Under the pieces are notes generated by a model, which had not been told where the DNA came from, did no database searches, and saw only the letters and a list, made by a program, of their open reading frames with translations. The position numbers and the translations under genes are program-made. A stretch of DNA of 20,689 bases from a virus. Its lineage: Duplodnaviria > Heunggongvirae > Uroviricota > Caudoviricetes. This document shows, piece by piece, positions 935-20,689 of the stretch; within the stretch, counting starts at the first letter, position 1, and each line of letters opens with the position of its first letter. The stretch spans positions 1 through 20,689 of the IMG/VR virus record IMGVR_UViG_2671180298_000002. One strand, 5' to 3'.

Positions 935-2620
935 GTGAATATAAACGTCGCCGAATTGTTAAATGGGAATTACATTCTGTTATTATTTGTGGTCCTCGCG
1001 CTTGGGCTATGTCTCGGAAAGTTACGACTTGGTTCGATCCAACTGGGTAATTCCATTGGCGTTTTAGTCGTATCGCTGTTATTAGGCCAACAACATTTCA
1101 GCATTAACACCGATGCGCTTAATCTTGGCTTTATGCTGTTTATTTTCTGCGTCGGGGTCGAAGCCGGACCGAACTTTTTTTCCATTTTTTTTCGCGATGG
1201 GAAAAATTACCTAATGTTAGCACTGGTGATGGTTGGCAGTGCGCTGGTGATCGCCTTAGGGTTAGGTAAGCTGTTTGGCTGGGATATTGGCCTGACGGCC
1301 GGTATGTTAGCAGGCTCTATGACGTCGACACCGGTTCTGGTCGGTGCTGGCGATACACTGCGTCATTCCGGCATGGAAAGCAGGCAGCTCTCACTGGCAC
1401 TGGATAATCTGAGCCTCGGGTATGCCTTAACCTATTTAATCGGTCTGGTGAGTTTGATTGTTGGTGCGCGTTACTTGCCGAAATTGCAGCATCAGGACTT
1501 ACAGACCAGCGCCCAGCAAATCGCCCGCGAACGTGGCCTGGACACTGATGCCAACCGTAAGGTTTATTTACCGGTGATCCGCGCCTATCGCGTCGGCCCG
1601 GAACTGGTGGCCTGGACCGACGGCAAAAATCTGCGTGAACTGGGTATTTATCGACAAACCGGCTGCTACATTGAACGTATTCGACGTAACGGGATTCTGG
1701 CAAATCCAGACGGTGATGCCGTGCTACAAATGGGCGATGAAATAGCGTTGGTAGGCTATCCCGACGCCCATGCCCGACTCGATCCCAGCTTCCGTAACGG
1801 TAAAGAAGTTTTCGATCGTGACCTTCTCGACATGCGTATCGTCACTGAAGAAGTGGTCGTTAAAAACCATAACGCTGTAGGTAAACGTCTCGCACAACTG
1901 AAGTTGACCGATCACGGTTGCTTCCTTAACCGCGTCATTCGTAGCCAGATTGAGATGCCGATAGATGACAACGTCGTGCTTAACAAAGGTGACGTTTTAC
2001 AAGTCAGCGGCGATGCCCGCCGCGTAAAAACCATCGCCGATCGCATCGGCTTTATCTCGATTCACAGCCAGGTCACTGACCTGCTGGCATTCTGCGCCTT
2101 CTTTGTTATTGGGCTGATGATCGGGATGATCACCTTCCAGTTCAGCACATTCAGTTTCGGCATGGGGAACGCTGCCGGGTTGTTATTCGCCGGAATTATG
2201 CTGGGCTTTATGCGTGCTAACCACCCGACCTTCGGTTACATTCCGCAGGGTGCATTAAGCATGGTGAAAGAGTTCGGCTTGATGGTGTTTATGGCAGGCG
2301 TTGGTCTGAGCGCCGGTAGCGGTATTAATAACGGCCTGGGCGCGATTGGCGGTCAGATGTTGATTGCCGGATTGATTGTCAGTCTGGTGCCCGTGGTTAT
2401 CTGTTTCTTGTTCGGTGCTTATGTATTGCGAATGAACCGCGCGCTGTTGTTCGGCGCAATGATGGGCGCACGTACCTGCGCGCCGGCAATGGAGATCATC
2501 AGTGATACAGCTCGCAGTAACATCCCGGCGCTGGGCTATGCGGGCACCTATGCAATCGCCAACGTCCTGCTGACGCTGGCAGGGACAATCATCGTCATGG
2601 TATGGCCAGGATTAGGATAA
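935..2620 (+). CDS. ybjL: Putative transporter YbjL (AAE family, two membrane domains flanking cytoplasmic TrkA-C-like domains)
   Basis: 561-aa ORF with hydrophobic N- and C-terminal domains and a soluble middle; GTG start at 935; N-terminus [24 protein letters not shown] recognised as YbjL. Confidence 0.9.
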
Positions 2621-2732
2621 AACTGAAGTTGCCCTGAAAATGAAATTTTTTTGCACAACCGCAGAACTTTTCCGCAGGGCATCAGTCTTAATTAGTGCCA
2701 CTGCTTTTCTTTGATGTCCCCATTTTGTGGAG

Positions 2733-2775
2733 CCCATCAACCCCGCCATTTCGGTTCAAGGTTGATGGGTTTTTT
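2733..2775 (+). terminator. Rho-independent terminator in the host flank between ybjL and the prophage end
   Basis: Perfect 10-bp stem CCCATCAACC / GGTTGATGGG (2733..2742 and 2760..2769) with a 17-nt loop, followed by TTTTTT (2770..2775). Confidence 0.6.
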
Positions 2776-2833
2776 GTTGCCTGAAATTTATGCTGTTTAA
2801 AATCATGATGTTAGAAGCACTGTTTTTTAACGA

Positions 2834-2855
2834 TGGCGACAAAATGGCGGCAGCG
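2834..2855. repeat. Candidate att core, ogr-proximal prophage end
   Basis: TGGCGACAAAATGGCGGCAGCG; 21/22 identical to 20650..20671; lies immediately before the ogr stop codon (2856..2858). Confidence 0.6.
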
Positions 2856-3074
2856 TCAAAGAGAGAGCGCCACCTGTCCTGATTTCATTGGATGCGGCTG
2901 AACCGGATTTGACTCTTTTGGCGTTGCAATCGAACGAACAAAAGTTTCATGGGTAACAAAAGTATGGCTGCAGTTAATGTTCTGGCACTGGTTGTAACGC
3001 TCTTTGGTCAATGAAGATACCTGAAAACTGCTGCGAGTATGGGCGGCACTTCCACACAGTGGGCAAATCATCAT
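2856..3074 (-). CDS. ogr: Ogr/Delta-type zinc-finger late-gene activator
   Basis: 72-aa product MMICPLCGSAAHTRSS...ERYNQCQNINCSHTF with a CxxC...CxxxxC zinc finger, resembling P2 Ogr (MFHCPLCQHAAHARTS...). Start set at the ATG preceded by GGGGAG; the tracked ORF extends further 5'. Confidence 0.85.
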   Translation of the reverse strand: MMICPLCGSAAHTRSSFQVSSLTKERYNQCQNINCSHTFVTHETFVRSIATPKESNPVQPHPMKSGQVALSL

Positions 3075-3164
3075 TTTTCGAGTTCTCCCCATTTTTGCTA
3101 AATTCACAATAATGATACCGCATTATTCCATTTTGCAAACTTAAAAGTTCTCCATTGCGAAGAA

Positions 3165-4265
3165 TCATTCCATTTCGAAATCATCAATCCTCACTTCAAG
3201 CTCCAGACTGGTCGTAAAACCGTTATCCGGGCTGACGGTATGCGTCAGAGTCGTAATGCTCCATTCCGCATCATCTATCGGCTGTTTAAAGCCACTGACT
3301 TTCACTGGCATTTCCGTGTAGAGATCTGCCCGCCCTTCCGCCAGTTGTAGCGAGAATGACGCAACGCCGCGTTGCAGGCGTTCCCACTGCATTTTCGCTG
3401 CCCGTTCAGCGTTGCTCCGGTTGGCATAAGTGCGATTAAGTACCAGCACGTTTTCATCCGTCCCCACCAGGTAATCGCCCTGCTTCGCTTCCGGCTCTTT
3501 CTTCTGCTTCTTAGTCCTGCGCTTACGCTTCACCGTAGTGCTTTCTTTCTTCGCGGGTTCGCGGGTATGCAACCAGCTGGCAATTACCCCCGTGTAAGCT
3601 CCGCGATCTGCCAGGGTAAAGCGGTGACTGTCGCCGTCCTTACGTGTGATAGTAATCACCGGCAGTGGTTTACCGCTGGCGCTTTTGCCCTGTCCCTGCC
3701 GGATGAATAACAGATTGCCATTTTTCACCGATGCAATGGCACCGTACTGGCGCGCCAGCCGCATCAAAAAACTGCCGTCACTCTCATTAGTCTGGTCTAT
3801 ATGCTCCACGGGCTTATCCGACAGGTCTTTACCCAGTGCCATCTTCAGCTTGTGCCGCGCGGCTATTTCCTTCACCACTTCCCCGATGGTGGTGTTATGC
3901 CACGATTTTTCACGGCGGGTATTCAGCGTTTCCCGAAAATCAGCACTTCGCGCCCGGATAGTCAGGCGGTCCGGTGCGCCAGTGTGTTCAATCTCGTCCA
4001 CCGTGAATGCCCCTTTCGGGAAAAGCGGCTGCCCCTTCCAGCCCAGCGCCAGCGTAATGACCGCACCACGGCGCGGCAGCACGATTTTTCCGTCGGCGTC
4101 GTCCAGCTCCAGATCAAGTTGGTCCGCTTCAAAGCCCCGATTGTCCGTCAGCGTCAGACTCATCAGGCGGTTATCCAGCACAGTGGTGATATCCTTCCCC
4201 TCAATACTGATGCTGAATGCGGGAGTTTTGTTTCCTTTGTTAAGCAGTTCAGAGCTGAAATTCAC
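3165..4265 (-). CDS. D: Phage tail protein D (late control gene D family)
   Basis: 366-aa ORF; gene order ogr-D-U-T and size match P2 gpD; overlaps the U stop (ATGA). Confidence 0.88.
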   Translation of the reverse strand: MNFSSELLNKGNKTPAFSISIEGKDITTVLDNRLMSLTLTDNRGFEADQLDLELDDADGKIVLPRRGAVITLALGWKGQPLFPKGAFTVDEIEHTGAPDRLTIRARSADFRETLNTRREKSWHNTTIGEVVKEIAARHKLKMALGKDLSDKPVEHIDQTNESDGSFLMRLARQYGAIASVKNGNLLFIRQGQGKSASGKPLPVITITRKDGDSHRFTLADRGAYTGVIASWLHTREPAKKESTTVKRKRRTKKQKKEPEAKQGDYLVGTDENVLVLNRTYANRSNAERAAKMQWERLQRGVASFSLQLAEGRADLYTEMPVKVSGFKQPIDDAEWSITTLTHTVSPDNGFTTSLELEVRIDDFEME

Positions 4266-4747
4266 GACAGCAGCCCTCCCACCGTTTTACTGATATCGCT
4301 TAAGGCAGACGTTGCCGTGTCCTGCAGATTATTCAGTTGAGTACTGAGATCACCGAACATATCGGACAGGGATTCATCCACCCGTTTTAGCGAAAGGGTG
4401 AACTCAATCCTGCGCGGCATACCGTCGCGGAAAAACTCCGTTTTAGTCTGATTCAGTCCCTCAATCACATACATGCCGTAAATCGTGCCGCTGCCTTCAA
4501 TCAGGGGCCATGCTTTCCCCTGTTCTGCCATCTGCTCCAGTGCCAGCAACGACAGCCTGCCGCCTGTTATCTCCGGCATAAGAACACCGGAAAGCGTCAG
4601 CATGTCGTTTTCCGGTCCCAGAAACTGCGTGGACGGACGACGGTTTACCCGGCTGTTTGCCGCATGTCGCCAGCTGCGTTGATACTGCAGTTCCTGATAC
4701 GGAACGGTGCGCAGCATAAACACGTACAATCCCAGCACCATCATCAT
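4262..4747 (-). CDS. U: Phage tail protein U
   Basis: 161-aa ORF starting MMMVLGLYVFMLRTVPYQELQYQRSWRH, recognised as P2 gpU; translationally coupled to the T stop. Confidence 0.85.
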   Translation of the reverse strand: MMMVLGLYVFMLRTVPYQELQYQRSWRHAANSRVNRRPSTQFLGPENDMLTLSGVLMPEITGGRLSLLALEQMAEQGKAWPLIEGSGTIYGMYVIEGLNQTKTEFFRDGMPRRIEFTLSLKRVDESLSDMFGDLSTQLNNLQDTATSALSDISKTVGGLLS

Positions 4748-5928
4748 GCGTCGTATCCCCCCTGATCGCTGTAGTTACTCCTGGCTTTTGCCTTCAGCCT
4801 GCGTTCACGTTCATCAAGCTGGCGTGCCACCTCCCGCGCAATATCCTGCGCACTTTGTCCTGGCTGCGTCTGAATGATGATCTGCGTCGGTGCCTCAATC
4901 CGTTGAACGAGCGGCACAGTGGCTGCGCGACTCACAATTGCTTCTCCACCTTTCGCGGGAAGTGCCAAAGGGTGCAACGGTGGAAGCTCTGCTGGCGCGG
5001 CAGCAACGCCCATCATTCCGGCAACAACGGCAGCCAGTGCAGCTGTATTTCTCCGGCTGGTCACATTTGCCGGGCCGTTAACAATTTCCGGCCCGTTTTC
5101 ACCGACGATGCCAAACTGCCCACGCGGGATATAGCCGCCGCTGTCATACATCCCCGCAAAGCCATATCCCCATGACGGAAAACCACCCGATGGCATCATC
5201 ACTTTACCGTCTGCATTCACCGTCGCAGGTTGCTGACGCGTCACGCTTTCCGGCAGTTTCGCCTTTGCAGCCTCTTTACTGACAATGCCGAGTTTATCCA
5301 GCAACCAGGAAACGCCAGATTTCAGGGAGTCCAGCGGATGCATAACCATATTCAGCCCTTCCGCCAGTGCCTCCCCGAATCGTCGCCCCATTGCCGCTGC
5401 GCTCTGCAGTTCGGCAGAGGTCGACTTAACGGGCGTCAGCAGATCAGTAAACCAGCCCCAGAGCGCCTGCACTTTGTCGCCAATCCACTGAAACACAGGC
5501 TTAAGTGGTTCGAATGCTGCACTGACGGGACCTGCCGCCGCTTTGAATCCTTCCACCACGCCACCAAGAAATGCGGTGATGGGTTGCCAGTATTTCCAGA
5601 CAACCAGCGCCACGCCCGCCAGTGCAGTAACCACAAGACCTATCGGACTGAGCAGAGCACCTAACAGACCAGATACGGCATACAGGGCAACGCGCAGCAT
5701 CGCCAGTGGACCAGATGCCAGTACTCGCAGCACCGTGCCTGCGGCGACCAGTCCACCGCGCAGTACCGCCAGAGGATTCATAAACATCACAGCAACAGCA
5801 CGTAAACCGGATAATCCAGACCGCAAAAGTGCAACCGGCGCACCTGCTACAGTTTTCATGACATTTCCCGTCAGTGATGCCGTGCGGCGCAAAGATGACA
5901 ACGGTGCAGTAAGTAAACCCGCAACCAC
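4744..5928 (-). pseudogene. T: Tail tape-measure protein T, 5'-truncated C-terminal fragment
   Basis: About 394-aa Gly/Ala-rich ORF immediately upstream of U; P2 gpT is about twice this length; the open frame is closed by a stop at about 5953..5955, some 25 bp from the divergent P start. Confidence 0.6.
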
Positions 5929-5977
5929 ACAAACCGCAGGCGGGGAAAGCCTTCATTCAAGGCTGTAGGTTTGTGCC

Positions 5978-7744
5978 ATGAACACCACACTGACACCCGC
6001 AGATCTCGATCCCCGTCGGCAGGCCATGCTGCTGTACTTTCAGGGATACCGCGTAGCCCGCATTGCTGAAATGCTGGGCGAGAAAGTTGCAACCGTTCAC
6101 AGCTGGAAAAAACGCGACAAGTGGGGTGACTATGGGCCGCTGGATCAGATGCAGCTCACCACCGCCGCACGCTACTGCCAGCTCATTATGAAGGAGCACA
6201 AAGAAGGGAAAGATTTCAAAGAGATTGACCTGCTGGCGCGCCAGTCGGAGCGCCATGCGCGGATCGGCAAGTTTAACAATGGCGGCAACGAAGCCGACTT
6301 AAACCCTAACGTCGCCAACCGCAACAAAGGCCCGCGCCGTCAGCCGGAAAAGAACGTTTTCACCGATGAACAGATTGAGAAGCTGGAAGAAATCTTCCAT
6401 TCCTCCATGTTCAACTACCAGCGCCACTGGTGGGAAGCCGGAAAAACCAACCGCATCCGCAACCTGCTGAAGTCACGCCAGATCGGCGCGACCTTCTATT
6501 TTGCCCGTGAAGCCCTGATTGACGCCCTGCTAACCGGGCGTAACCAGATTTTCCTTTCCGCCAGCAAGGCTCAGGCCCACGTCTTTAAGCAGTACATCAT
6601 CGACTTCGCCAAAGAAGTGGAGGTGGAGCTGAAAGGCGATCCGATGGTGCTTCCTAACGGGGCCACGCTGTACTTCCTCGGCACCAATGCCCGCACGGCC
6701 CAGAGTTACCACGGCAACCTGTATCTGGATGAATATTTCTGGATACCGAAATTCCAGGAGCTGCGCAAAGTGGCTTCCGGTATGGCTATTCACAAAAAAT
6801 GGCGACAAACCTATTTTTCCACGCCATCCAGCCTGACACACAGTGCTTATCCGTTCTGGTCCGGTGCGCTGTTCAACCGAGGGCGCAACAAAGCCGATAA
6901 GGTGGACATCGACCTGTCCCACAGCAATCTGGCCCCCGGCCTGCTGTGCGCAGACGGGCAGTACCGCCAGATAGTCACTGTGGAAGATGCGGTGCGCGGC
7001 GGCTGTAACCTGTTCGACCTCGACCAGTTGCGCATGGAGTACAGCCCGGACGAATACCAGAACCTGCTGATGTGTGAGTTCGTGGACGATCTCGCGTCTG
7101 TGTTCCCACTCAGCGAGCTGCAGGCGTGCATGGTAGACAGTTGGGAAGTCTGGACCGACTTTCATGCACTGGCCCTGCGCCCGTTTGGCTGGCGCGAAGT
7201 GTGGATCGGATATGACCCGGCGAAAGGTACGCAGAACGGCGACAGCGCCGGATGCGTGGTGGTGGCGCCGCCAGCCGTGCCGGGCGGTAAGTTCCGCATT
7301 CTTGAGCGTCACCAGTGGCGCGGAATGGACTTTCGCGCCCAGGCTGACGCCATCAAAAAACTGACCGAACAGTACAACGTGACCTATATCGGTATCGACT
7401 CAACCGGCGTTGGTCACGGGGTTTACGAGAACGTGAAAGCGTTTTTTCCTGCCGTCCGGGAGTTTGTCTACAACCCCAACGTTAAAAACGCCCTGGTACT
7501 CAAGGCCTACGACATTATCAGCCACCGCCGTCTGGAGTTTGACGCCGGACACACCGACATAGCGCAGTCCTTTATGGCAATCCGTCGCGCCACCACCGCC
7601 AGTGGCAACCGCCCGACCTATGAAGCCAGCCGCAGCGAAGAAGCCAGCCACGCCGATCTGGCCTGGGCAACGATGCACGCACTGTTTAACGAACCGCTGC
7701 AGGGCGAATCCGCCAATACCAGCAATATTGTGGAGATTTTTTGA
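5978..7744 (+). CDS. P: Terminase large (ATPase) subunit, P2 gpP-like
   Basis: 588-aa ORF; size and position next to portal Q fit P2 gpP; 3' end overlaps the Q start. Confidence 0.9.
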   Translation: MNTTLTPADLDPRRQAMLLYFQGYRVARIAEMLGEKVATVHSWKKRDKWGDYGPLDQMQLTTAARYCQLIMKEHKEGKDFKEIDLLARQSERHARIGKFNNGGNEADLNPNVANRNKGPRRQPEKNVFTDEQIEKLEEIFHSSMFNYQRHWWEAGKTNRIRNLLKSRQIGATFYFAREALIDALLTGRNQIFLSASKAQAHVFKQYIIDFAKEVEVELKGDPMVLPNGATLYFLGTNARTAQSYHGNLYLDEYFWIPKFQELRKVASGMAIHKKWRQTYFSTPSSLTHSAYPFWSGALFNRGRNKADKVDIDLSHSNLAPGLLCADGQYRQIVTVEDAVRGGCNLFDLDQLRMEYSPDEYQNLLMCEFVDDLASVFPLSELQACMVDSWEVWTDFHALALRPFGWREVWIGYDPAKGTQNGDSAGCVVVAPPAVPGGKFRILERHQWRGMDFRAQADAIKKLTEQYNVTYIGIDSTGVGHGVYENVKAFFPAVREFVYNPNVKNALVLKAYDIISHRRLEFDAGHTDIAQSFMAIRRATTASGNRPTYEASRSEEASHADLAWATMHALFNEPLQGESANTSNIVEIF

Positions 7745-8844: not shown

Positions 8845-9114
8845 TTACCAATTTCTTTTTTCGGAGTTTAGCCAATCACCGCATGGATAATATCTTGACG
8901 CCCATTCACCTTGTAAACGAGCTACAAACAGAATATCGTTACTATCGACCTTGGCTTGGAGTCCGTCACGCAGTTGAGTTGCGGTCAGCGTTGTATCTAC
9001 TAACCAAAATGATTCAAGATATTTACAGTATGTAAATTGCTTTAGATAGTCAAAAACTTCATCGTAGTTTCTTCCCGGAGCCTTCAAGTCATAGGTTATA
9101 CAATAAATAGCCAT
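8845..9114 (-). CDS. Hypothetical small alpha/beta protein, possibly Cas2/VapD-like fold
   Basis: 89-aa ORF; GGAG 8 nt upstream of the ATG; starts 3 nt after the Zn-ribbon ORF stop; AT-rich; pattern MAIYCITYDL...YLESFWLV...ILFVARL resembles the Cas2 layout (recognition by eye, unverified). Confidence 0.6.
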   Translation of the reverse strand: MAIYCITYDLKAPGRNYDEVFDYLKQFTYCKYLESFWLVDTTLTATQLRDGLQAKVDSNDILFVARLQGEWASRYYPCGDWLNSEKRNW

Positions 9115-9117
9115 TCT

Positions 9118-9300
9118 CTAAGCTCCGCATTTTTTATCATTTGGGGAACATCTTAACCTGCGACATTTGCGGCAATACGATTGAGGGATCAGCCGCTCTC
9201 CTTCCATAGTTCTAAAACCAAACACTTCTTCAATTTTGTTCAAATCACCACTTGCAATAACCCCACAGCAGGGGCAGACAGCCTCAATTTGAAATGCCAT
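9118..9300 (-). CDS. Hypothetical small zinc-ribbon protein
   Basis: 60-aa product MAFQIEAVCPCCG...YCRKCRRLRC with Cys pairs; GGAG 6 nt upstream of the ATG at 9300; the tracked ORF extends to a TTG at 9363. Confidence 0.55.
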   Translation of the reverse strand: MAFQIEAVCPCCGVIASGDLNKIEEVFGFRTMEGERLIPQSYCRKCRRLRCSPNDKKCGA

Positions 9301-9463
9301 GTCTATCTCCATTCCACATGTTGAATGTAGGGTAATACTTCCTTTCAAGCAAAAATGAGACAAGGATCTTAAAACCTAATTTAAACTTGCTTGCGCGCGC
9401 TCGTATCCCCGCCACGCCTGCCCGCTTTATGTAGTGGTTTTCATGCAGATGCATGCTCTACGC

Positions 9464-9492
9464 AAAAGCCCGCCAGTTCTGGCGGGCTTTTG
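9464..9492. terminator. Hairpin separating the three-gene and two-gene cargo modules
   Basis: AAA-AGCCCGCCAG-tt-CTGGCGGGCT-TTT; GC-rich 9-10 bp stem with A/T flanks on both sides. Confidence 0.6.
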
Positions 9493-9554
9493 CAAAAACG
9501 ATCCTCAAACGATCATGCGATTTCATGCAGCATAGACATGCAAAGTAGAAACTG

Positions 9555-9971
9555 CTATTTAACGTCCGGCGTTTGCGCTGTGGGGGATACTTTTCCATCT
9601 AGCGTATTTACAATTGAGAGGGGGTAAATTCCCATTTCAATTCCACAGATCACGTCGTAACGAGCCTGCGCTTTCTCTCGCATTTCTGGAGAAACAGGGG
9701 ACGATGGTGCATTTAAAACTGCTTCGGCTTGCTTCTTCAGAGCCTTCAACCGCCTTTTCAGTTTGATTTCTTGCGGATCAACAGCATAAATCGTCCATGC
9801 AAAAGTAAAAACTTCGCTTAAAAGAATTGACACCATCGGTATTGAAGCAATGTAAAGGTCTTTCCATGTTGGATCTGTAATGAAGCTAGCCAGCTTTATT
9901 AGGAAAAGGCCTACACCGCCGCCACCTGTAACACCGACTGCTTTACCGCTTGTTTTCTTTTGTTCAGGCAT
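9555..9971 (-). CDS. Hypothetical small membrane protein (two predicted TM helices), third gene of the cargo operon
   Basis: About 138 aa from the ATG at 9971 (tracked ORF starts at a GTG at 9995); Gly-rich stretch then hydrophobic helices (GVGLFLIKLASFI; IASIPMVSILLSEVFTFAWTIYAV); overlaps the upstream gene by 8 nt. Confidence 0.6.
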   Translation of the reverse strand: MPEQKKTSGKAVGVTGGGGVGLFLIKLASFITDPTWKDLYIASIPMVSILLSEVFTFAWTIYAVDPQEIKLKRRLKALKKQAEAVLNAPSSPVSPEMREKAQARYDVICGIEMGIYPLSIVNTLDGKVSPTAQTPDVK

Positions 9972-10227
9972 GAGAGGCTGACTCCTTCCTCTCACGCTTA
10001 TTTTTCTCTGCTATATCATCGATGAGCTTTATTAACTCATCATCATTGTTTATATAAATATTTGTTTTATAGACATTTTTGTTTGCATCAGTATAAGTGA
10101 TAGAAACTTTTGTTTCGACAATAACTCGATCGAGCAGGCTACGTATAGCCACTCTAGCACCTATAAATATAGCTGGAGCTGCAACAAGCAGCCCCAACCA
10201 TCCTAACACACTAATATCTATAGACAT
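9964..10227 (-). CDS. Hypothetical single-pass membrane protein, second gene of the cargo operon
   Basis: 87 aa; N-terminal TM helix (VLGWLGLLVAAPAIFIGARVAI) then a charged soluble tail; ATG lies 2 nt after the upstream stop. Confidence 0.6.
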   Translation of the reverse strand: MSIDISVLGWLGLLVAAPAIFIGARVAIRSLLDRVIVETKVSITYTDANKNVYKTNIYINNDDELIKLIDDIAEKNKRERKESASHA

Positions 10228-10229
10228 TT

Positions 10230-11123
10230 TTAATCCGCATCAGGTTTTATTTTTCTATCTTTGGCGGCAAAGTGTCGACCCACTTTGATGATCGATAACT
10301 TTTCGTCTACCTGGCCACCGGAATCTTTCACAATTTTCTTCATCTTCACAGCAAACAATTCGCCAAAAATTTTGGGGGCGTCTGGTCCAGTAACAAGCTT
10401 GATGAACTCATTATCTTCCATTCTGACATTGCGCTTTTCACCGCCAAACTCAACACGCCAGCCACTTTTTTTGTCAGTATGCGCCGAAACGAATGTCACG
10501 GTTGTTTCAAATTCGTCAACTTCTTCTTTGGTTTCAAAGAGAACTTTTGGCGACTTAAACTCTTCTGCCTCATCTTTATGAATTTTGAGGATTTCTTTCT
10601 TAGAGGTGCGCGATTTTTTTACCACAAAATTGTCGATACCATCTTGTAACAGAGGCTGTCTGACAAACGCGTCAACAGCCTTACGAATCTCTGGGGCATT
10701 AACGATTTTTTCGACATCTTCAGAGCAAACAATCTCTTCACCATCGACTTTCAGCTTAACTTTGTCACTACCGTTAGCTTTCTCGACTATGTCGATCTTA
10801 CGCCCGTTAAGCTTCTTGAGAACCTCTAAAACTGTAGCACCGCCAACGGCTAAAGGAATGGCTGACAAACCTAAAATTTGTACAACATCTTTAGCATTAG
10901 CTAGATGTTGTACAACCTCAATATCAAACCCAAAGGAACCGGCTATCAATTCAGCGTCAACGTTAACTTCAATGTCTCGCCCTCCGTTTACAATCTCATT
11001 TGCAGAGTAGATAGCCTCACCTAGCCCCTGCAAACTTTTCGCAAACGAAAGAATATCCATCTTATGATCGTCGAGAGCTTTGCCTTGATACACAATACTT
11101 ACTGATTGAGTCTTATCCGCCAT
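10230..11123 (-). CDS. Hypothetical charged protein (about 297 aa), first gene of the cargo operon
   Basis: Long AT-rich ORF; first ATG at 11123 (tracked ORF starts at a TTG at 11144); K/E/D-rich with one internal hydrophobic stretch; no motif I recognise. Confidence 0.65.
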   Translation of the reverse strand: MADKTQSVSIVYQGKALDDHKMDILSFAKSLQGLGEAIYSANEIVNGGRDIEVNVDAELIAGSFGFDIEVVQHLANAKDVVQILGLSAIPLAVGGATVLEVLKKLNGRKIDIVEKANGSDKVKLKVDGEEIVCSEDVEKIVNAPEIRKAVDAFVRQPLLQDGIDNFVVKKSRTSKKEILKIHKDEAEEFKSPKVLFETKEEVDEFETTVTFVSAHTDKKSGWRVEFGGEKRNVRMEDNEFIKLVTGPDAPKIFGELFAVKMKKIVKDSGGQVDEKLSIIKVGRHFAAKDRKIKPDAD

Positions 11124-11259
11124 TGAGTTCAGATCCGTTGCCAATAAAATGCGCGCGATTTTACGCCCATCACTATGTTTAATCTATCTATTAATCATTT
11201 ATCCCTCTAGCTGTCTACTATCGGACTCAAAAAACATGACTCATTACAAACGAAACCTA

Positions 11260-11735: not shown

Positions 11736-11751
11736 CTGTTTATATTTACAG
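11736..11751 (-). promoter_or_regulatory. LexA (SOS) box
   Basis: CTGTTTATATTTACAG, a CTG-N10-CAG palindromic match to the TACTGTATATATATACAGTA consensus, embedded in an AT-rich promoter-like region upstream of the small ORF and DinI-like gene. Confidence 0.75.
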
Positions 11752-11845: not shown

Positions 11846-14260
11846 TTAATACAGGTTCCGCCACTTATCATCTTCCTGCAAACGCTGGTTCCGATAGAAA
11901 ATACGCAGGCCTGCTCCTGACGGAATACTGCCGCCGCGAAGGAGTAAATCGACCTCTTTCTCGCTGCCATCAAATCCCCTGGACTTCAGTTCATACACGA
12001 GCTGCAGTCGCTGATGGTCTGTAATTCGCTGTTTGTAGTCTTTACGCCGTTTCGGTTTCACCAGGCGTAACCTTGCTGCCAGTTCCCGGCGCTCTTTTTT
12101 GCTCATACTGTGCAGGTAATCGTGCAACTCCTTGTCATCCATGCGGGTGATATCCGTTCTGGTATCTCCATCAGCTGATTTGTCTTTCCCTTGTTGGTAC
12201 AAATTTTCAGCAAGGGGACAGTTATTGCCACGAGTCCAAGGGGCGCAAGCGCCCTGGTCGGCTGCCGCCTCCTGAACGTCAACGGCTTTACGAACCATTT
12301 TCCACTTCACTGCATGAGTGCAGATCTTGCCCTCTGCAATGGGTGACCAGATGCCATAAATACGAATGCCGTGATCGCCATAGGCGGTCGGCTCTTCGTT
12401 GATTTCATAAGCGGTTCTGATGAGGTGATATTTACGGGGAACCAGTACGCCGCCCTGCTTCATGATGTAGGTGGCAAAACAACCAGCATCAGCAGCAGCC
12501 AGAATGGCATCAAGACGCGGGTTATCCAGTACCGGCGCACCTGCTTTTTTGTCACCCTGTTGCCTTGCCGCCTGACCAGCCAGCAAGCGAAGTTCACGGT
12601 AAGCCTGACGCCCCGGAATACCAAAGAAGCGGAATTGCTGAACACGATGCAGAGACGCCCAGGCATTCACGTATTCAGCGTTATCACGCAGAGATTTACC
12701 CGTTTCCTTGCTGATCTCGCCAGCCAGACCACGACCGTCAATGTTCTTACTGATATATTTCGCGATGTAGCTTGTCGGCGTTCCTTTGCGCGGGTTAATC
12801 AACTCAGACTTAAAGCGCGGCCCAGTGTTATTGCCCAGCTCCTCGCGGTCTTCACGGATGGCAAACTTACGCAGTAATGCAGTGATGGCACGGCGGTCTT
12901 TTTTGCGCATGAAACACAACAGGTGCCAGTGAACTGTGCCATCATGATGCGGCTCAGCCACCCGCACGCCATACCAGCGCAACCCGGCTTTGTGCATCGC
13001 CTTACGAAATGCAGCAAACATGCCGACCAGATAATCGCTGCTTTGTCTTACCGTCGCGTTTGTCCAGGTCGGGTTTGGTCTGCCGTTATTTAGCGTGGAA
13101 TGGAAACGCGACGGACAGGTGATAGTGTAGAAAACGGCGCAGTCACCGCGCATTTCCGCGATAAGCTCCAGACCTTTAACACAGGCCATCATCTCATTGC
13201 GGCGATGCGCAGGGTTGCTGCTGCTGGCGTTTACCACATCCTCCATGTCCAGCGTGTCGCCGTCTTCGTTCACCAGTTCATGAGAACGGAAAAACTCCAG
13301 CGACTTACGGCGCTGCTCACGTTTATGCATCACGGCTTCATAGCTGACATAAGGAGATGCTTTTTTGCTGACCAGGCAAACAGCGCGCAACTGCTCTTCC
13401 CGCCATTCGCAACGCATCTTCCATAATTTCCGATACCACCAGTCGGCGCACAACATACGCGCCAGCGAACCCGGAATGAGTTCATACGGCACGGGTTTAC
13501 GGCGGTTTCTTTTCCGACGGAGTTGCTCAAACGCAGGTGGGATGACATCCAGACGCAGGGTTTCCGCTGCCACCTTTTCCCATGTCTTGCGGATTTCTTC
13601 TGGCTTAACGTCATCGGTGGCATACAAATCACCACAAGCTGCATCAAGGCACATACTCATATGCGCAGCTACCAAGGTGGACAGGCGTTTCACCTGATCC
13701 TGACTCATTTCAGGCAGGATCAGCAGGCCGTCCAGCCCTTCATGGCTTGCCATAAAGCGAAAAGATGCAGATAGCTGACTGTCGCGTACATGCTCCAGTC
13801 GTTCCAGACATGGCTTAATCGTCTCACGTAAATAGCGGGAATAAGCCTTTGGCCTGCCCAGGCTGCTGAAGTATTCAATACGTTGCATCAGCGGCTTGCT
13901 GATATGGGAAGGCTGGGCGTTGACGTCCGCCAGAATGACCATGTCTGAATTAAAACGCTGCTGCTCATGCGCCAGCTTTGCCCGGCTAATGAGCTTATCC
14001 TGCTCCATTTCGCGCTGGACAGGATCACGTGATTCATTAAAGAAATAACGCTCCCAGACCTGATCACTCAGTGCCTCGCGGCGCAACTGTTCCTGCTCGT
14101 TATCGGCAGCGTACAGAGTGATCAGGTTTGAAAGCGTAGAAACCGGCGCAACTTCCGCCGGGTCCAGATAAGGGTTAATGGCCTTTTTCGGGCTGTTCCA
14201 TGAGAATGCTGCGGCAGCCTCGTTAAAGCCGCAGCAGTTGTTCATATCGGCATGACTCAT
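11846..14260 (-). CDS. A: Replication initiation protein A (rolling-circle HUH endonuclease, P2 gpA-like)
   Basis: 804-aa ORF with an HUH-type motif (VHWHLLCF) and a paired-tyrosine motif (SYIAKYISK) as in P2 gpA. Confidence 0.9.
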
Positions 14261-15114
14261 GCACGTACTCCGTACACGGCAGAACTATCCACGCCACGCG
14301 AATAATCAAATCCCATCCAGCAGCGCGGCCCGGAAACAGCAATGATTTCTGTTGCTGATTTACCCTCGCCAGCTGCCACACCGATGCTGCGTTTTACCTT
14401 GATATAGTGGTGAGTAAAATTGCGATACAGCGAACGGATCAGGGATGTGTCACTGTTAGAAACAATGACCGGATGTCCTTCTGATGACCGATGTTCAAGA
14501 ACGGATGCCAGGTGATACTGGTCATCTTCAGTGAAACCATCAGTGTGATAGCCGGAAAACGTACCGTCATATGGCGGATCGCAATACACCACATCTCCCG
14601 CCTTCAACATCGCCAGCGTTTCATCAAAGCTGGCGCAGATAAACGTTGCTCGCTGGGCTTTTTCTGCAAATGTGCGAAGTTCTTTTTCAGGGAAATACGG
14701 ATTTTTATAATTACCGTAGGGAATGTTGAAATGCCCGCTCTTGTTATAGCGACATAAACCACGGTAACCGTGACGATTGAGATACAGGAAATATACCGCT
14801 TTCATGAAATCAGTAATTTCAGTTGAGCAGTTAAACTCCTGCCTTATGTTGTAATAAGCCACCTCCCTGTTTGCGATCTCAAATAAAACTCTGGCGCGAG
14901 ATATAAACGATTCACAATCAGCGGCAACCTTTTTATAGAGGTTGATTAAATCAGGATTAATATCCGCAACCAGATAGCTGGGATAATCCGTTTCCATCAT
15001 CACAGCACAGGAACCCGCGAAAGGTTCAACCAGTCGCGGGCCAGCAGGAAGGTATTTTTTCAGTTCTGGCATAATGGCGGTTTTATTTCCCGCCCATTTC
15101 AGGATGGTGCTCAT
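14257..15114 (-). CDS. Phage Dam-family DNA N6-adenine methyltransferase
   Basis: 285 aa from the ATG at 15114; ILKWAGNK and DPPY motifs; ATGA overlaps with the TraR-like gene upstream and gpA downstream. Confidence 0.85.
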
Positions 15115-15338
15115 ACAGCACCTCCGTTGTAATGTTTGCCTTTCAGTTCTGCGATTTCCTGACAGGTAATGCAAAGCTGCACTCCCGGAATGGCGCGGCG
15201 TCGTGCTGGCGGAATTGGCGCTTCACATTCAATGCAAAGTACGCGTGACACGCCCGGTGATTTGGCACGGGCTGCACGGATATGGCGCTGGCGTTCTTCT
15301 TCAACGCGCTGCTGTACGAGATCCATTGCATCAGCCAT
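15111..15338 (-). CDS. TraR/DksA-family C4 zinc-finger protein
   Basis: 75 aa with CIECEAPIP...CITCQ (CxxC-N17-CxxC); AGGAG 8 nt upstream of the ATG; position between the early ORFs and A, as for P2 orf82. Confidence 0.8.
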   Translation of the reverse strand: MADAMDLVQQRVEEERQRHIRAARAKSPGVSRVLCIECEAPIPPARRRAIPGVQLCITCQEIAELKGKHYNGGAV

Positions 15339-17260: not shown

Positions 17261-17857
17261 ATGTCAACATCAAAGTACCCAAGTGAGATCAAAATAAATC
17301 CCAATAAAGGTGGTAAGGCTGCGATTGAGCGATTAGTCGAAGCCTATGGCTTTACGACACGACAGGCTTTAGCTGATCACTTGGAAGTATCAAAAAGCAC
17401 ACTAGCGAACAGGTATTTGCGGGATACATTTCCTGCTGACTGGATAATCCAATGTGCTCTTGAAACAGGAACCTCCCTCAAATGGTTAACTACCGGACAA
17501 GGCCTTAAGCAAAGCTCGCTGACAGCAGCTACAGAAGAGCTTGTTAAGTTTCGCCTTGCCGCAGGCAAAATGATTGAAGACGGTTCATATGTCTTCGATT
17601 CATCATTTCTTCCTGCAAACCTTTCATCACCAATTGTTGTTCAGGATGGACTCGTCACATACATTTGTGATCAAAAATTTTCTGAAGTACTTGATGGAAA
17701 CTGGTTAATCAATATCGACGGAACCTATTCCATTCGAAAAATCACAAGGCTTCCTAAAGGAATGATTAAAATTACAACAGCAGAGAATAGCTTTGAATGT
17801 GCATTTTCTGATATTGAAGTGGTTGCTTGTATAAGAAGTACAATAGTCTCGAATTAA
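17261..17857 (+). CDS. cI: 186-type CI immunity repressor
   Basis: 198-aa ORF; N-terminal region (AIERLVEAYGFTTRQALADHLEVSKSTLANRYLRD...ALETGTSLKWLTTGQG) resembles the phage 186 CI N-domain; divergent from the cox-like gene. Confidence 0.82.
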   Translation: MSTSKYPSEIKINPNKGGKAAIERLVEAYGFTTRQALADHLEVSKSTLANRYLRDTFPADWIIQCALETGTSLKWLTTGQGLKQSSLTAATEELVKFRLAAGKMIEDGSYVFDSSFLPANLSSPIVVQDGLVTYICDQKFSEVLDGNWLINIDGTYSIRKITRLPKGMIKITTAENSFECAFSDIEVVACIRSTIVSN

Positions 17858-17877: not shown

Positions 17878-19554
17878 ATGAATTCATTTGCCATCGTTAT
17901 ACTCTTATTAGCATTTCTCGCCCCTGTTCTAGCTGTAATATTATTTAAACAAAGTAAAAAACACAAAGCGGCTATAGATAACCTGACAGCTAACAACATA
18001 GCCCTTTCTAACCAACTGATTGAAAATCAAGAAAAACTAGCACAGACCGTACGAGAATTATCAGAGCTTGAAGGGCGAGCAGCACCATTGTGGCAATACG
18101 AAGAATTGCACAGCGCAGTAATGGATGCAGAGAATAAGATAAAAAATGCGGACTCAATAGCCAAGCAAAAAATAGATGAAGCCCAAATTAAGGCGGCTAA
18201 AACAGTAAACGAAGCAAATTATCAAGCTCAGATGACAATAAGCAACGCTAATAGCGAAGCTATAGCAATCACCAAAGACGCTCGCGATGCACGCCTGAAA
18301 GCCAAAGAACGTCTTGATAATGCTAATAATAAAGCAAATGAGCTAATCTCAAATGCTAATGACAATGCAGTAAAAATTATTTCTGATGCAGAAGAAAGAG
18401 CAAAGGAGATTGCTGGTTCAGCATATGAAGCTAAAGAGTTTGCAGAAAAATATGAAGCAGTTGCAAAATCAATGAAAAATAAAATTGAAGGTTATGGTGA
18501 TGAATGGATCATCCCTAACCGTAGTGTACTTGATGAGCTGGCAGAAAATTATGAATTTACAGATGCAGGCAAGGAATTACAAAAAGCCAGAGAGTTAACC
18601 AAATCATTAATAAAAACTAATAAAGCTGCTTCGTGTAATTATGTTGAGCAAAACAGGCGTAATACTGCCATAAACTTTGTTTTGGATGCCTTCAATGGAA
18701 GAGTTGACAGTATTTTATCAAAAGTCAAACACAACAATTTTGGAAAACTTTCCCAAGAAATAAAAGATGCATTTCAACTAGTAAATTACAATGGCTCTGC
18801 CTTTAGGTCCGCAAAAATAAGTGACATCTATCTTCAGGCAAGACTCAACGAGCTAAAATGGGGTGTAGCAGTTAATGAAATTATGCTCGAAGAAAAAGAA
18901 GAGCAAAGAAGGATTAAAGAACAGCTTCGTGAAGAGGAAAGAGCTCGTAGAGAATATGAAAAAGCGATAAAAGAAGCTGAAAAAGAAGAAAAAGCTATTC
19001 AGCAAGCTATAAATAAAGCAACGAAAGAACTTATGCTTGCAAATGAAGAACAACGCTTAGCTTTAGAGCAAAAAATAGCTGAACTACAGTTAAAATATGA
19101 AGAAGCTGAAGCTAAAAATCAACGAGCTATTTCTATGGCTCAACAAACCAGATCAGGCCACGTCTATATCATTAGTAATATTGGTTCATTTGGCGAAGAT
19201 GTATATAAAATTGGAATGACACGCCGCCTTGAACCACTTGATCGTGTTCGTGAACTCGGAGATGCTAGTGTTCCTTTTTCGTTCGATGTTCATGCGATGA
19301 TTTATAGTGATGATGCACCATCATTAGAAAACCATCTGCATAAAGTTTTCAACGAAAAGCAGGTCAATAAAATTAACTCACGAAAAGAGTTTTTTAACGT
19401 AAATTTAAAAGAAATCAAATCAGTTATTGAAGACATGAACATCAACGCCCACTGGACAATGTTTGCAGAGGCGAAAGAATATAGAGAGTCTCTAGCTATT
19501 GAGCAGGAGCGCAAAGCAGCCACTTCCGCCAACGATGAACTACATGTTGCTTAG
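17878..19554 (+). CDS. Membrane-anchored coiled-coil protein with C-terminal T5orf172 (GIY-YIG-like) domain; DUF4041-type architecture
   Basis: 558 aa; N-terminal TM helix (FAIVILLLAFLAPVLAVILF), long coiled-coil with NAN/EA repeats, C-terminal GHVYIISN...YKIGMTRR...LENHLHKVF...KEFF motif; AAGGA 7 nt upstream; 20 bp after the cI stop. Confidence 0.85.
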   Translation: MNSFAIVILLLAFLAPVLAVILFKQSKKHKAAIDNLTANNIALSNQLIENQEKLAQTVRELSELEGRAAPLWQYEELHSAVMDAENKIKNADSIAKQKIDEAQIKAAKTVNEANYQAQMTISNANSEAIAITKDARDARLKAKERLDNANNKANELISNANDNAVKIISDAEERAKEIAGSAYEAKEFAEKYEAVAKSMKNKIEGYGDEWIIPNRSVLDELAENYEFTDAGKELQKARELTKSLIKTNKAASCNYVEQNRRNTAINFVLDAFNGRVDSILSKVKHNNFGKLSQEIKDAFQLVNYNGSAFRSAKISDIYLQARLNELKWGVAVNEIMLEEKEEQRRIKEQLREEERARREYEKAIKEAEKEEKAIQQAINKATKELMLANEEQRLALEQKIAELQLKYEEAEAKNQRAISMAQQTRSGHVYIISNIGSFGEDVYKIGMTRRLEPLDRVRELGDASVPFSFDVHAMIYSDDAPSLENHLHKVFNEKQVNKINSRKEFFNVNLKEIKSVIEDMNINAHWTMFAEAKEYRESLAIEQERKAATSANDELHVA

Positions 19555-19636: not shown

Positions 19637-20689
19637 ATGGCAGTACGAAAACTAACCACAGGGAAATGGCTTTGCGAATGTTACCCCGCCGGACGAAGTG
19701 GGCGTCGTGTGCGTAAACAATTCGCCACCAAAGGCGAAGCACTGGCTTTTGAGCGCCACACGATGGAAGAAACCGAAGCAAAGCCCTGGCTGGGTGAATC
19801 AGTGGATCGTCGAACACTGAAAGACGTGGTTGAGCTATGGTTCAAACTACATGGTAAATCTCTGACAGCTGGGCAGCATGTCTATGACAAATTGCTGTTG
19901 ATGGTTGACGCTCTGGGCAATCCTCTTGCAACCGATCTCACCTCTAAAATGTTTGCCCACTATCGAGATAAACGCCTGACAGGCGAGATCTACTTCAGCG
20001 AGAAATGGAAGAAAGGAGCAAGCCCGGTCACCATTAACCTGGAGCAAAGCTATCTAAGTAGTGTTTTTAGCGAACTATCCCGTCTGGGCGAATGGTCGTA
20101 TCCGAACCCACTGGAGAACATGCGAAAATTCACCATCGCAGAAAAAGAGATGGCATGGCTTACCCATGAGCAGATTGTTGAATTGCTGGCTGATTGCAAA
20201 CGTCAGGACCCAATTCTGGCACTGGTAGTTAAGATATGCTTAAGCACAGGCGCACGCTGGCGTGAAGCCGTAAATCTTACCCGCTCACAGGTGACCAAAT
20301 ACCGAATTACCTTTGTCAGAACGAAGGGGAAGAAAAACAGAAGCATCCCTATCAGTAAAGAGCTTTACGAAGAGATCATGGCGCTTGATGGGTTCAATTT
20401 CTTCACAGACTGCTATTTTCAATTTTTATCCGTGATGGAAAAAACGTCTATCGTGCTCCCTCGCGGTCAACTCACACACGTTCTGCGCCATACGTTTGCG
20501 GCGCACTTCATGATGTCGGGTGGAAACATTCTGGCCTTACAAAAAATTCTCGGACACCACGATATAAAAATGACTATGCGTTACGCACATCTGGCACCGG
20601 ATCATCTAGAAACGGCGCTCCGTTTCAATCCTCTGGCAACGCTGCCAAGTGGCGACAAAGTGGCGGCAGCGGTTGGCATTACCCCGTAA
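19637..20689 (+). CDS. int: Tyrosine integrase (P2 Int-like)
   Basis: 350-aa ORF; N-terminus MAVRKLTTGKW...GRRVRKQF parallels P2 Int (MAIKKLDDGRY...GKRIRRKF); C-terminal LSTGARWREA...HVLRHTFA...MRYAHLAP recombinase motifs with the catalytic Tyr. Confidence 0.92.
   Translation: MAVRKLTTGKWLCECYPAGRSGRRVRKQFATKGEALAFERHTMEETEAKPWLGESVDRRTLKDVVELWFKLHGKSLTAGQHVYDKLLLMVDALGNPLATDLTSKMFAHYRDKRLTGEIYFSEKWKKGASPVTINLEQSYLSSVFSELSRLGEWSYPNPLENMRKFTIAEKEMAWLTHEQIVELLADCKRQDPILALVVKICLSTGARWREAVNLTRSQVTKYRITFVRTKGKKNRSIPISKELYEEIMALDGFNFFTDCYFQFLSVMEKTSIVLPRGQLTHVLRHTFAAHFMMSGGNILALQKILGHHDIKMTMRYAHLAPDHLETALRFNPLATLPSGDKVAAAVGITP
20650..20671. repeat. Candidate att core, int-proximal prophage end (inside the int 3' end)
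   Basis: TGGCGACAAAGTGGCGGCAGCG; 21/22 identical to 2834..2855. Confidence 0.6.

Follow-up and report, generated by a model that had tools for sequence, protein, structure and literature searches.

A P2-like Escherichia coli prophage carries, in the accessory locus between its genes A and Q, three minus-strand genes that form a conserved, translationally coupled unit, which travels as a cassette among mobile elements that are unrelated to one another. The prophage stretch that we analyzed is IMG/VR record IMGVR_UViG_2671180298_000002, positions 1-20,689. We refer to all 20,689 nucleotides (nt) as the window, and coordinates are positions within it. By its sequence, the large cytoplasmic protein g1 (297 amino acids (aa); minus strand, 10230..11123) is a full-length member of the family of gp29 from mycobacteriophage MichelleMyBell, a reported defense protein. 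The other two genes encode small membrane proteins: g2 (87 aa; minus strand, 9964..10227) and g3 (138 aa; minus strand, 9555..9971). The initial annotation of this DNA proposed an anti-phage or exclusion module that combines a cytoplasmic protein with small membrane partners. Given the remote homology and the genomic context, this is still the best reading, and we think it probable that the trio has an anti-phage function. Our reasons are the membership of g1 in the gp29 family, independent guilt by embedding, the hotspot and moron positions of the genes, and the retention of the trio in a degraded prophage.

We place g1 in the gp29 family because several kinds of tests agree. First, the NCBIfam equivalog model NF053583 gives g1 a score of 191.6 bits, against a cut-off of 60 (residues 16-291 align to positions 2-290 of a 292-position profile), and with 181.4 bits, MichelleMyBell gp29 passes this model too. 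Second, the PADLOC model for PDC-S42 (PDLC05015) matches g1 with E = 7.8e-44 (residues 12-295 versus profile positions 3-293) and matches gp29 with E = 1.6e-16, while single-gene relatives of g1 reach 290-313 bits; PDC-S42 was the only match in the PADLOC search of the trio. Third, hhalign aligned the g1 family to gp29 with a probability of 98.7% (E = 4.7e-16, 269 columns), and a profile-profile comparison of the g1 family with 20 actinobacterial homologues of gp29 gave 99.3% (E = 1.1e-20, 272 columns). Fourth, a hidden Markov model of the g1 family that was built without the actinobacterial sequences gives gp29 75 bits, while 3HP, RexAB-like proteins, gop, and MichelleMyBell gp30 all score 5 bits or less. 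Finally, a Foldseek search of BFVD with the predicted structure of g1 found gp31 of Pipsqueaks (E = 1.8e-6), a protein that shares 99% identity with part of gp29. There is also a full-length match of g1 to PHROG 3243 (function unknown). Our lead to gp29 was a homologue of g1 in a Vibrio tectivirus-like element (PQ189332): this member of the trio's own clade carries the gp29 model name, being annotated as MMB_gp29_gp30__gp29, and MMB_gp29_gp30 is the DefenseFinder model of the MichelleMyBell system. So the statement in the initial annotation that these proteins could not be placed in any described family no longer holds for g1, which falls in the family that is variously labeled gp29, LAPAL (NCBIfam), and PDC-S42 (PADLOC).

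This family is large, since 3,643 representative clusters (at 50% identity) reached E <= 0.001 when 1.84 billion representative proteins were searched with a profile. Of these, 568 reached E <= 1e-30. The matched clusters are nearly all 280-320 aa long, and the family ranges across Actinobacteria, Firmicutes, and Proteobacteria. Two other searches gave less: a search for related loci with a narrow alignment returned just 4 genomes, and distant members of the family were beyond the reach of a second, word-indexed protein search. The literature, when searched for PDC-S42, the LAPAL motif, DUF7946, and the WP accessions, gave no results.

What is reported about gp29 comes from MichelleMyBell (KF986246), in which gene 29 encodes a protein of 310 aa (6383-7312 of our locus L014) and gene 30, which overlaps the 3' end of gene 29, encodes a protein of 67 aa with two hydrophobic helices. 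Four secondary sources give the following picture. Genes 29 and 30 are called viral defense genes (PMC5559632). The MichelleMyBell prophage lowers the plating efficiency of phage Tweety by 4-5 orders of magnitude, and gp54 of Tweety counters this (PMC8549241). Adsorption and DNA injection go ahead and phage production fails, which resembles abortive infection (PMC6426606). And one account calls gp29 toxic, regards gp30 as a putative membrane protein, and gives their mechanism as unknown (PMC11856565). The trio resembles gp29-gp30 in that g1 is a full-length, cytoplasmic homologue of about 300 aa from the same equivalog family, in that the large gene is followed in both by a coupled or overlapping gene, or genes, for small membrane proteins, and in that both lie in an accessory locus of a temperate phage (in MichelleMyBell, between the lysis cassette and int). 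On the other hand, the trio has a protein with one transmembrane (TM) helix and another with two (87 and 138 aa), while gp29 has a single 67-aa partner with two; the host of the trio is Gram-negative; and g1 is just ~20% identical to gp29.

The three genes belong together. We inspected 14 gamma-proteobacterial loci, of which 13 were checked by tblastn and the 14th is on the Pseudomonas megaplasmid pBM413. In 13 of the 13 loci checked by tblastn, g1 is followed directly by homologues of g2 and g3, in the same order. The homologue of g1 on pBM413 is 27% identical, and it has the same trio layout, including the overlap between the second and third genes. The three genes thus co-occur in 14 of 14 loci, and because the open reading frames (ORFs), their order, and their coupling are intact while the identity of g1 falls as low as 27%, we do not think that the arrangement is due to chance. 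The carriers are diverse: P2-like prophages, a Klebsiella siphovirus-type prophage, lambdoid prophages of Proteus (beside a cI-type repressor), a Proteus phage tail module, the head module of a Mu-like phage, the Vibrio tectivirus-like element (beside an integrase), and the Pseudomonas megaplasmid. As the conserved unit occurs in unrelated elements and with varying neighbors, it is an autonomous, mobile cassette. Within E. coli, 8 of 5426 complete genomes carry the block, at 99.9-100% identity and in every case on the chromosome.

Outside of the trio's clade, the partner genes are different. Actinobacterial members of the family have a gp30-like ORF with two TM helices that overlaps the 3' end of the gp29 homologue and is often missed by gene callers. 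We found such ORFs, absent from the recorded gene calls, in Mycolicibacterium and Subtercola genomes (L024 3905-4108 and L025 3845-4111). Because of these omissions, the number of gp29-gp30 pairs may be underestimated, with some pairs recorded as single genes. Other members of the family have no membrane partner: ORF19 of Lactobacillus phage A2, which lies between the endolysin and int; ORF27 of Listeria phage 188, which lies between a superinfection-immunity-like gene and int; a gene at the end of a Salmonella prophage; a gene that follows hsdR of a type I restriction-modification (RM) system; a lone gene on another element; and a distant 354-aa member (L019 3746-5065) that abuts an Xre-type helix-turn-helix gene immediately upstream, which suggests a further partner arrangement, with transcriptional control. 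The partners of different clades are mutually non-homologous. In particular, neither g2 nor g3 has any detectable similarity to MichelleMyBell gp30.

These partners bear on which protein does the damage. One possibility, following the proposals for RexA/RexB of phage lambda and for gp30/gp31 of Sbash, is that g1 is a cytoplasmic sensor only, and that g2 and g3 together are the effector, which depolarizes or permeabilizes the inner membrane once g1 has been triggered. The g2/g3 pair is strictly conserved and coupled to g1 in 14 of 14 gamma-proteobacterial loci, the actinobacterial clade also keeps a small ORF with two TM helices that overlaps the end of gp29, small TM proteins are commonly taken to be the effectors of abortive infection (PMC9122126; PMC6426596), and g1 has no recognizable enzymatic or effector domain. 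Nevertheless, many members of the family lack any membrane partner and are classed as single-gene candidates, and a common membrane effector is unlikely because the partners of different clades are non-homologous. Furthermore, the component that is reported to be toxic is gp29 rather than gp30 (according to a secondary source, PMC11856565), and the trio shows no relation in sequence to the RexA-like and RexB-like proteins with which it was compared. So we consider a membrane effector unlikely, although it is the most serious of the alternatives. The initial annotation noted a resemblance to RexA/RexB. The architecture is indeed alike, as RexA/RexB and Sbash gp30/gp31 also consist of a prophage-expressed cytoplasmic protein with one or more small membrane proteins, and in the lambdoid prophages of Proteus the trio even sits beside a cI-type repressor. 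But no Rex families were detected, and RexB has 4 TM helices in one protein, while the trio has 1 and 2 in two proteins.

Our preferred reading is that the trio is an abortive-infection-type defense cassette in which g1 would be both the sensor and the effector, with g2 and g3 as its regulators or anchors. We would give this a rough probability of 0.45. We favor g1 as the sensor-effector because single-gene members of the family exist, because the partners are non-homologous between clades, and because gp29 is reported to be toxic. Expression from the resident prophage could come from a weak promoter of the cassette's own, from read-through out of the LexA-controlled operon of a DinI/tum-like gene, or from both. 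The proteins g2 and g3 would assemble in the inner membrane, probably at a ratio of 1:1 given that their genes overlap by 8 nt, and would dock g1. In turn, g1 would be a non-enzymatic protein of three domains, including an OB-like C-terminal barrel, that is a sensor and a growth-arresting effector in one. The membrane pair would restrain g1, or localize it, until g1 is set free by some product of a heterotypic phage that infects the cell. Abortion of the infection would follow once the DNA has entered, which is how MichelleMyBell gp29-gp30 is reported to act.

A broader version of this proposal is more tentative. The trio may be a distinct three-component branch of a very large defense family in which a non-enzymatic OB-domain protein like g1 acts as both phage sensor and toxin, and in which small membrane proteins that differ by lineage (none, gp30, or g2 with g3) have been recruited repeatedly as its brakes or anchors. 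We consider this possible, but less likely than not.

Several observations weigh against our preferred reading. The phenotype of gp29-gp30, and above all the toxicity of gp29, is taken from secondary sources. The ~20% identity between g1 and gp29 is a distance at which function can drift. The g2 and g3 genes are kept even where g1 has diverged to 27% identity, so they may be more than accessories. We found no convincing sigma-70 promoter on the minus strand of the leader of the cassette (11124-11259). The cassette was catalogued as system 37 by Rousset et al., but it was not among the systems that they cloned (PMC9122126). Finally, the NCBIfam name of the g1 family is "LAPAL motif-containing putative phage structural protein."

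If this name were correct, then g1 would be a structural or morphogenetic protein of the phage. The name is that of a curated family (NF053583), and some homologues of g1 do lie inside head or tail modules, namely in the Mu-like phage and the Proteus phage. However, the same model gives 181 bits to gp29, which is a defense gene that acts during lysogeny (PMC5559632). Also, g1 is rare: of 5426 complete E. coli genomes, 8 have it, as do 104 of 18,150 P2 hotspot loci, and the P2-like phage genomes that were listed as matches match the flanking backbone only. It is located in a non-structural hotspot; its homologues include genes on a megaplasmid, after hsdR, and in other non-phage contexts; and this prophage, which apparently lacks capsid and lysis genes and most of the tail genes, keeps all three genes intact. 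In other words, members of NF053583 are found as rare cargo, on plasmids, beside RM systems, and in a prophage without apparent capsid genes. We also did not find homology of the trio to structural, lysis, or replication proteins, apart from the NCBI family name itself. A structural role for g1 therefore seems very unlikely. Because the family includes a reported defense protein, we doubt the name, which is probably a misnomer that PGAP has spread.

Another explanation is that the trio is a moron without a role in defense, such as an addiction module (similar to toxin-antitoxin systems) that stabilizes the prophage, or a membrane-associated function in lysogenic conversion. The P2 A-to-Q locus is known as a defense hotspot, but it also holds non-defense cargo, including partition systems and toxins (PMC9122126). 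An addiction module would also be consistent with a gp29 that is toxic and a partner that neutralizes it, and the site downstream of a LexA-controlled operon could link expression to induction rather than to superinfection. On the other hand, the sole relative that has been studied gives defense against heterotypic phage, and the family is found embedded in or beside RM systems. Defense or exclusion-type cargo is also present: SieB and a DUF262 protein beside the trio in sister prophages, and PD-Lambda-1 in this prophage. And in recent screens of unannotated loci from the P4 hotspot, most of the loci that were tested proved to be protective (PMC13586616). We think that a role outside of defense is rather improbable.

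A third alternative is superinfection exclusion at the cell envelope, in which the membrane proteins block the entry of the DNA of incoming phage and g1 is their cytoplasmic partner. The trio has two small inner-membrane proteins, and some of the loci that are homologous to the trio adjoin Imm_superinfect or Sie-type genes. But the MichelleMyBell system is reported to permit both adsorption and DNA injection (PMC6426606), and the core of the family is a 300-aa cytoplasmic protein that often has no membrane partner. We consider this less probable still than a role outside of defense, though not as far-fetched as a structural one.

The system is not of a new kind, because its large protein falls in a known defense family and the cassette has been catalogued before. 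Rousset et al. list it as system 37 in their Table S5B, with 104 occurrences among 18,150 P2 hotspot loci (PMC9122126). The three protein sequences of that entry are identical to those of the trio (their "protein 2" is g3 and their "protein 3" is g2). The entry has no Pfam annotation and no name, and is accompanied by the note "2 TM in protein 2, 1 TM in protein 3" (PMC9122126). It is a catalogue entry only, and it draws no link to gp29-gp30. Similarly, PDC-S42 is one of 145 PDC candidates that were nominated because they occur inside loci of BREX, DISARM, or type I RM systems (bioRxiv 10.1101/2024.01.29.577857). The PDC-S42 model, PDLC05015, covers g1 at full length, but the system is defined as having a single gene (Payne et al. 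2024 preprint), whereas g1 has two conserved partners that lie outside of that definition. The apparent novelty lies in connecting Rousset system 37 with PDC-S42 / LAPAL_fam and with gp29-gp30, and in recognizing the conserved three-gene variant in gamma-Proteobacteria, with its two novel membrane partners.

We rejected several other identities for the trio. First, for RexAB, there was no match to the RexA, RexB, or DUF4747 families of Pfam, and the RexAB-like proteins of E. marmotae score at most 1.3 bits by profile. Second, the 3HP system (hp+hp+hp, or Rst_3HP, from E. coli E1114) also has three genes and lies in the same hotspot, but its proteins are 225-350 aa long, and the scores against all three of them are at most 4.2 bits, so both the sequences and the sizes differ. 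Third, the 2TM+1TM+TIR system of phage AC1 (Rst_2TM_1TM_TIR) is found in the same hotspot and also combines a protein with two TM helices, a protein with one, and a cytoplasmic protein of ~300 aa; hhalign gave probabilities of 0.07-0.24% for the three pairs, and g1 does not have a TIR domain. Fourth, one paper presents "gp29-gp30" as a (p)ppGpp synthetase. This fits the protein from Phrann, and g1 has no match to RelA/SpoT.

Turning to the proteins themselves, the longest ORF for g1 (10230-11144) would begin with TTG and encode 304 aa. TTG is unlikely to be the true start. The most likely start is the ATG at 11123 (297 aa), because homologues align from that methionine and because PGAP uses it in identical E. 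coli loci. As initially described, g1 is rich in lysine, glutamate, and aspartate: about 33% of its residues are charged (47 K+R and 52 D+E). The internal hydrophobic stretch that was also described (around residues 73-98) does not stand up as a conserved segment of TM grade, as it has charged residues in close homologues that have the same operon. This "LAPAL" segment is rich in glycine and alanine, and its Kyte-Doolittle hydrophobicity is 0.9-2.2, or ~1.1 in the nearest homologues from trio loci. The AlphaFold2 model of g1 has a mean confidence (predicted local distance difference test, pLDDT) of 80 and shows three domains: an N-terminal alpha/beta domain, a middle domain, and a C-terminal OB-like beta-barrel. 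The N-terminal part has a weak relation to DUF7946, seen in 12 of 37 members, and the Pfam match is below the threshold. Y12, G62-S63, G85, P157, W222, D237, and F240 are conserved; these residues do not suggest a known active site. More broadly, the Pfam scan of g1, g2, and g3 gave no significant family, and no enzymatic domain was recognized in g1. Foldseek with the g1 model found nothing below E = 0.04 in the PDB, and the sequence profile of the family found no relative with a solved structure.

For the small proteins, the predicted topologies have held up. The g2 protein has one N-terminal TM helix, followed by a charged C-terminal domain. The g3 protein has a TM hairpin of two helices, of which the first is glycine-rich and the second hydrophobic, and a basic, helical C-terminal tail. 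Rousset et al. obtained the same TM counts with Phobius, that is, two for g3 and one for g2 (PMC9122126). By the positive-inside rule, the soluble parts of both proteins are predicted to face the cytoplasm. The longest ORF for g3 (9555-9995) would start with GTG and encode 146 aa, and the start that PGAP annotates in identical loci is the ATG at 9971 (138 aa), which has a strong ribosome-binding site, AGGAAGGAG, ahead of it. The AlphaFold2 model of g3 from its single sequence is of low confidence, and a tblastn search of the phage collection with g3 gave no match.

The boundaries of the cargo are clear from its neighbors. In a megablast comparison to phage genomes, the only matched sequence on one flank was 9400-9542, with identities of 91-95% to the listed P2-like phages lacking the cassette, and on the other flank the match to the backbone restarts at ~11259 and continues onward. 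We therefore take the AT-rich cargo to extend from 9543 to 11259. It is ~1.7 kb long and comprises the three genes (297, 87, and 138 aa) and a cassette-specific leader of 136 nt (minus strand, 11124..11259), which lies between the stop codon of the DinI-like gene and the start of g1. More precisely, the cassette is located between the DinI/tum-like gene and a cos-proximal terminator of the prophage. The gap between the stop codon of g1 and the start codon of g2 is 2 nt, and g3 overlaps g2 by 8 nt. So three claims of the initial annotation were accurate: the three co-oriented minus-strand ORFs are tightly coupled; the block is richer in AT than the flanking phage core genes (its GC content is 0.39-0.45 over 9501-11000, as compared to 0.51-0.58 for the terminase and portal genes and 0.52-0.55 for gene A); and, with conserved P2-type backbone on both sides, it is accessory cargo in the A-to-Q hotspot.

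The initial annotation also described a hairpin at 9464..9492 that closes the block. The hairpin exists (AAAAGCCCGCCAGTTCTGGCGGGCTTTT): it is GC-rich, it is flanked by runs of A and T, it resembles a bidirectional terminator, and it is used by the cassette. However, it belongs to the conserved backbone and not to the cargo, because it lies within 9400-9542, which the listed P2-like phages without the cassette share at 91-95% identity. The same hairpin-side backbone sequence is present in the hotspot of E1114 that was cloned by Rousset et al. (PMC9122126). Nearby, at 9400-9418, is a cos-like site (reverse complement GGCGTGGCGGGGATACGAG) that differs from the canonical cos 19-mer of P2 at ~5 positions; the canonical 19-mer itself, when searched for with up to 3 mismatches, was absent, and only this diverged site was seen. 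Two small, co-oriented ORFs on the minus strand (8845-9114 and 9118-9363) separate the portal gene from the cos-like site. One encodes 89 aa and belongs to PHROG 1090, with weak matches to Cas2-like proteins in PADLOC (E = 8e-4), and the other encodes 81 aa with a CxxC...CxxC zinc ribbon (PHROG 19700). These ORFs are cargo that is separate from the trio, on the portal side of the backbone element that contains the hairpin and the cos-like site. Sister prophages from E. coli have SieB or a DUF262 protein where the Cas2-like and zinc-ribbon pair sits here.

As for expression, there is a perfect LexA box of consensus CTGT-N8-ACAG (CTGTAAATATAAACAG) at 11736..11751, upstream of the operon that comprises a small ORF (PHROG 698) and the DinI/tum-like gene (DinI by its match to Pfam). 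Both of these genes are co-oriented with the trio. We take the box to resemble the LexA-controlled tum promoter of phage 186. No terminator-like site was called between the stop codon of the DinI-like gene (11260) and the start of g1 (11123), so SOS-dependent read-through into the trio is possible. Presumably, the leader (11124-11259) carries the cassette's own promoter.

We also made some observations about the rest of the prophage, which appears to be defective. Genes for gpD (3165-4265) and gpU (4262-4747) and an ORF of 394 aa with no match in Pfam (4744-5928) abut the terminase gene (5978-7744). Over 2620-7744, genes for capsid, scaffold, small terminase, lysis, and tail sheath were not seen between these genes and the terminase. 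By comparison, in PEC148 the capsid genes adjoin the terminase. The host genes ybjM and a ybjL-like permease are at 288-2620. Elsewhere in the prophage, a gene on the plus strand (17878-19554) encodes a 558-aa protein that matches PD-Lambda-1 in PADLOC (E = 1.7e-120) and has DUF4041 and T5orf172/MUG113 domains. The gene is in a very AT-rich stretch (GC content 0.35-0.38) that has the CI repressor (17261-17857) on one side and the integrase (19637-20689) on the other. This looks like a second defense gene, of a known type, in the same prophage. Finally, a D12-class N6-adenine DNA methyltransferase (minus strand, 14257-15174; an orphan methyltransferase in PADLOC) is downstream of gene A and overlaps it. 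A methyltransferase of this class next to gene A is common in this group of prophages.

These results join three database entries that have apparently been kept apart, namely Rousset system 37, PDC-S42, and gp29-gp30. They also imply that for thousands of genes the label "putative phage structural protein" is probably mistaken. Because this member of the family is from E. coli and has its native partners, the mechanism of the gp29 family would be open to standard coliphage genetics. Also, as the sets of partners range from none to one or two small membrane proteins, the family offers a natural experiment on how a defense core gains regulators. If our broader and more tentative proposal is true, then an OB-domain protein that is both sensor and toxin would be a new effector principle, and the structural annotation that NCBI has given to the whole family would be overturned.

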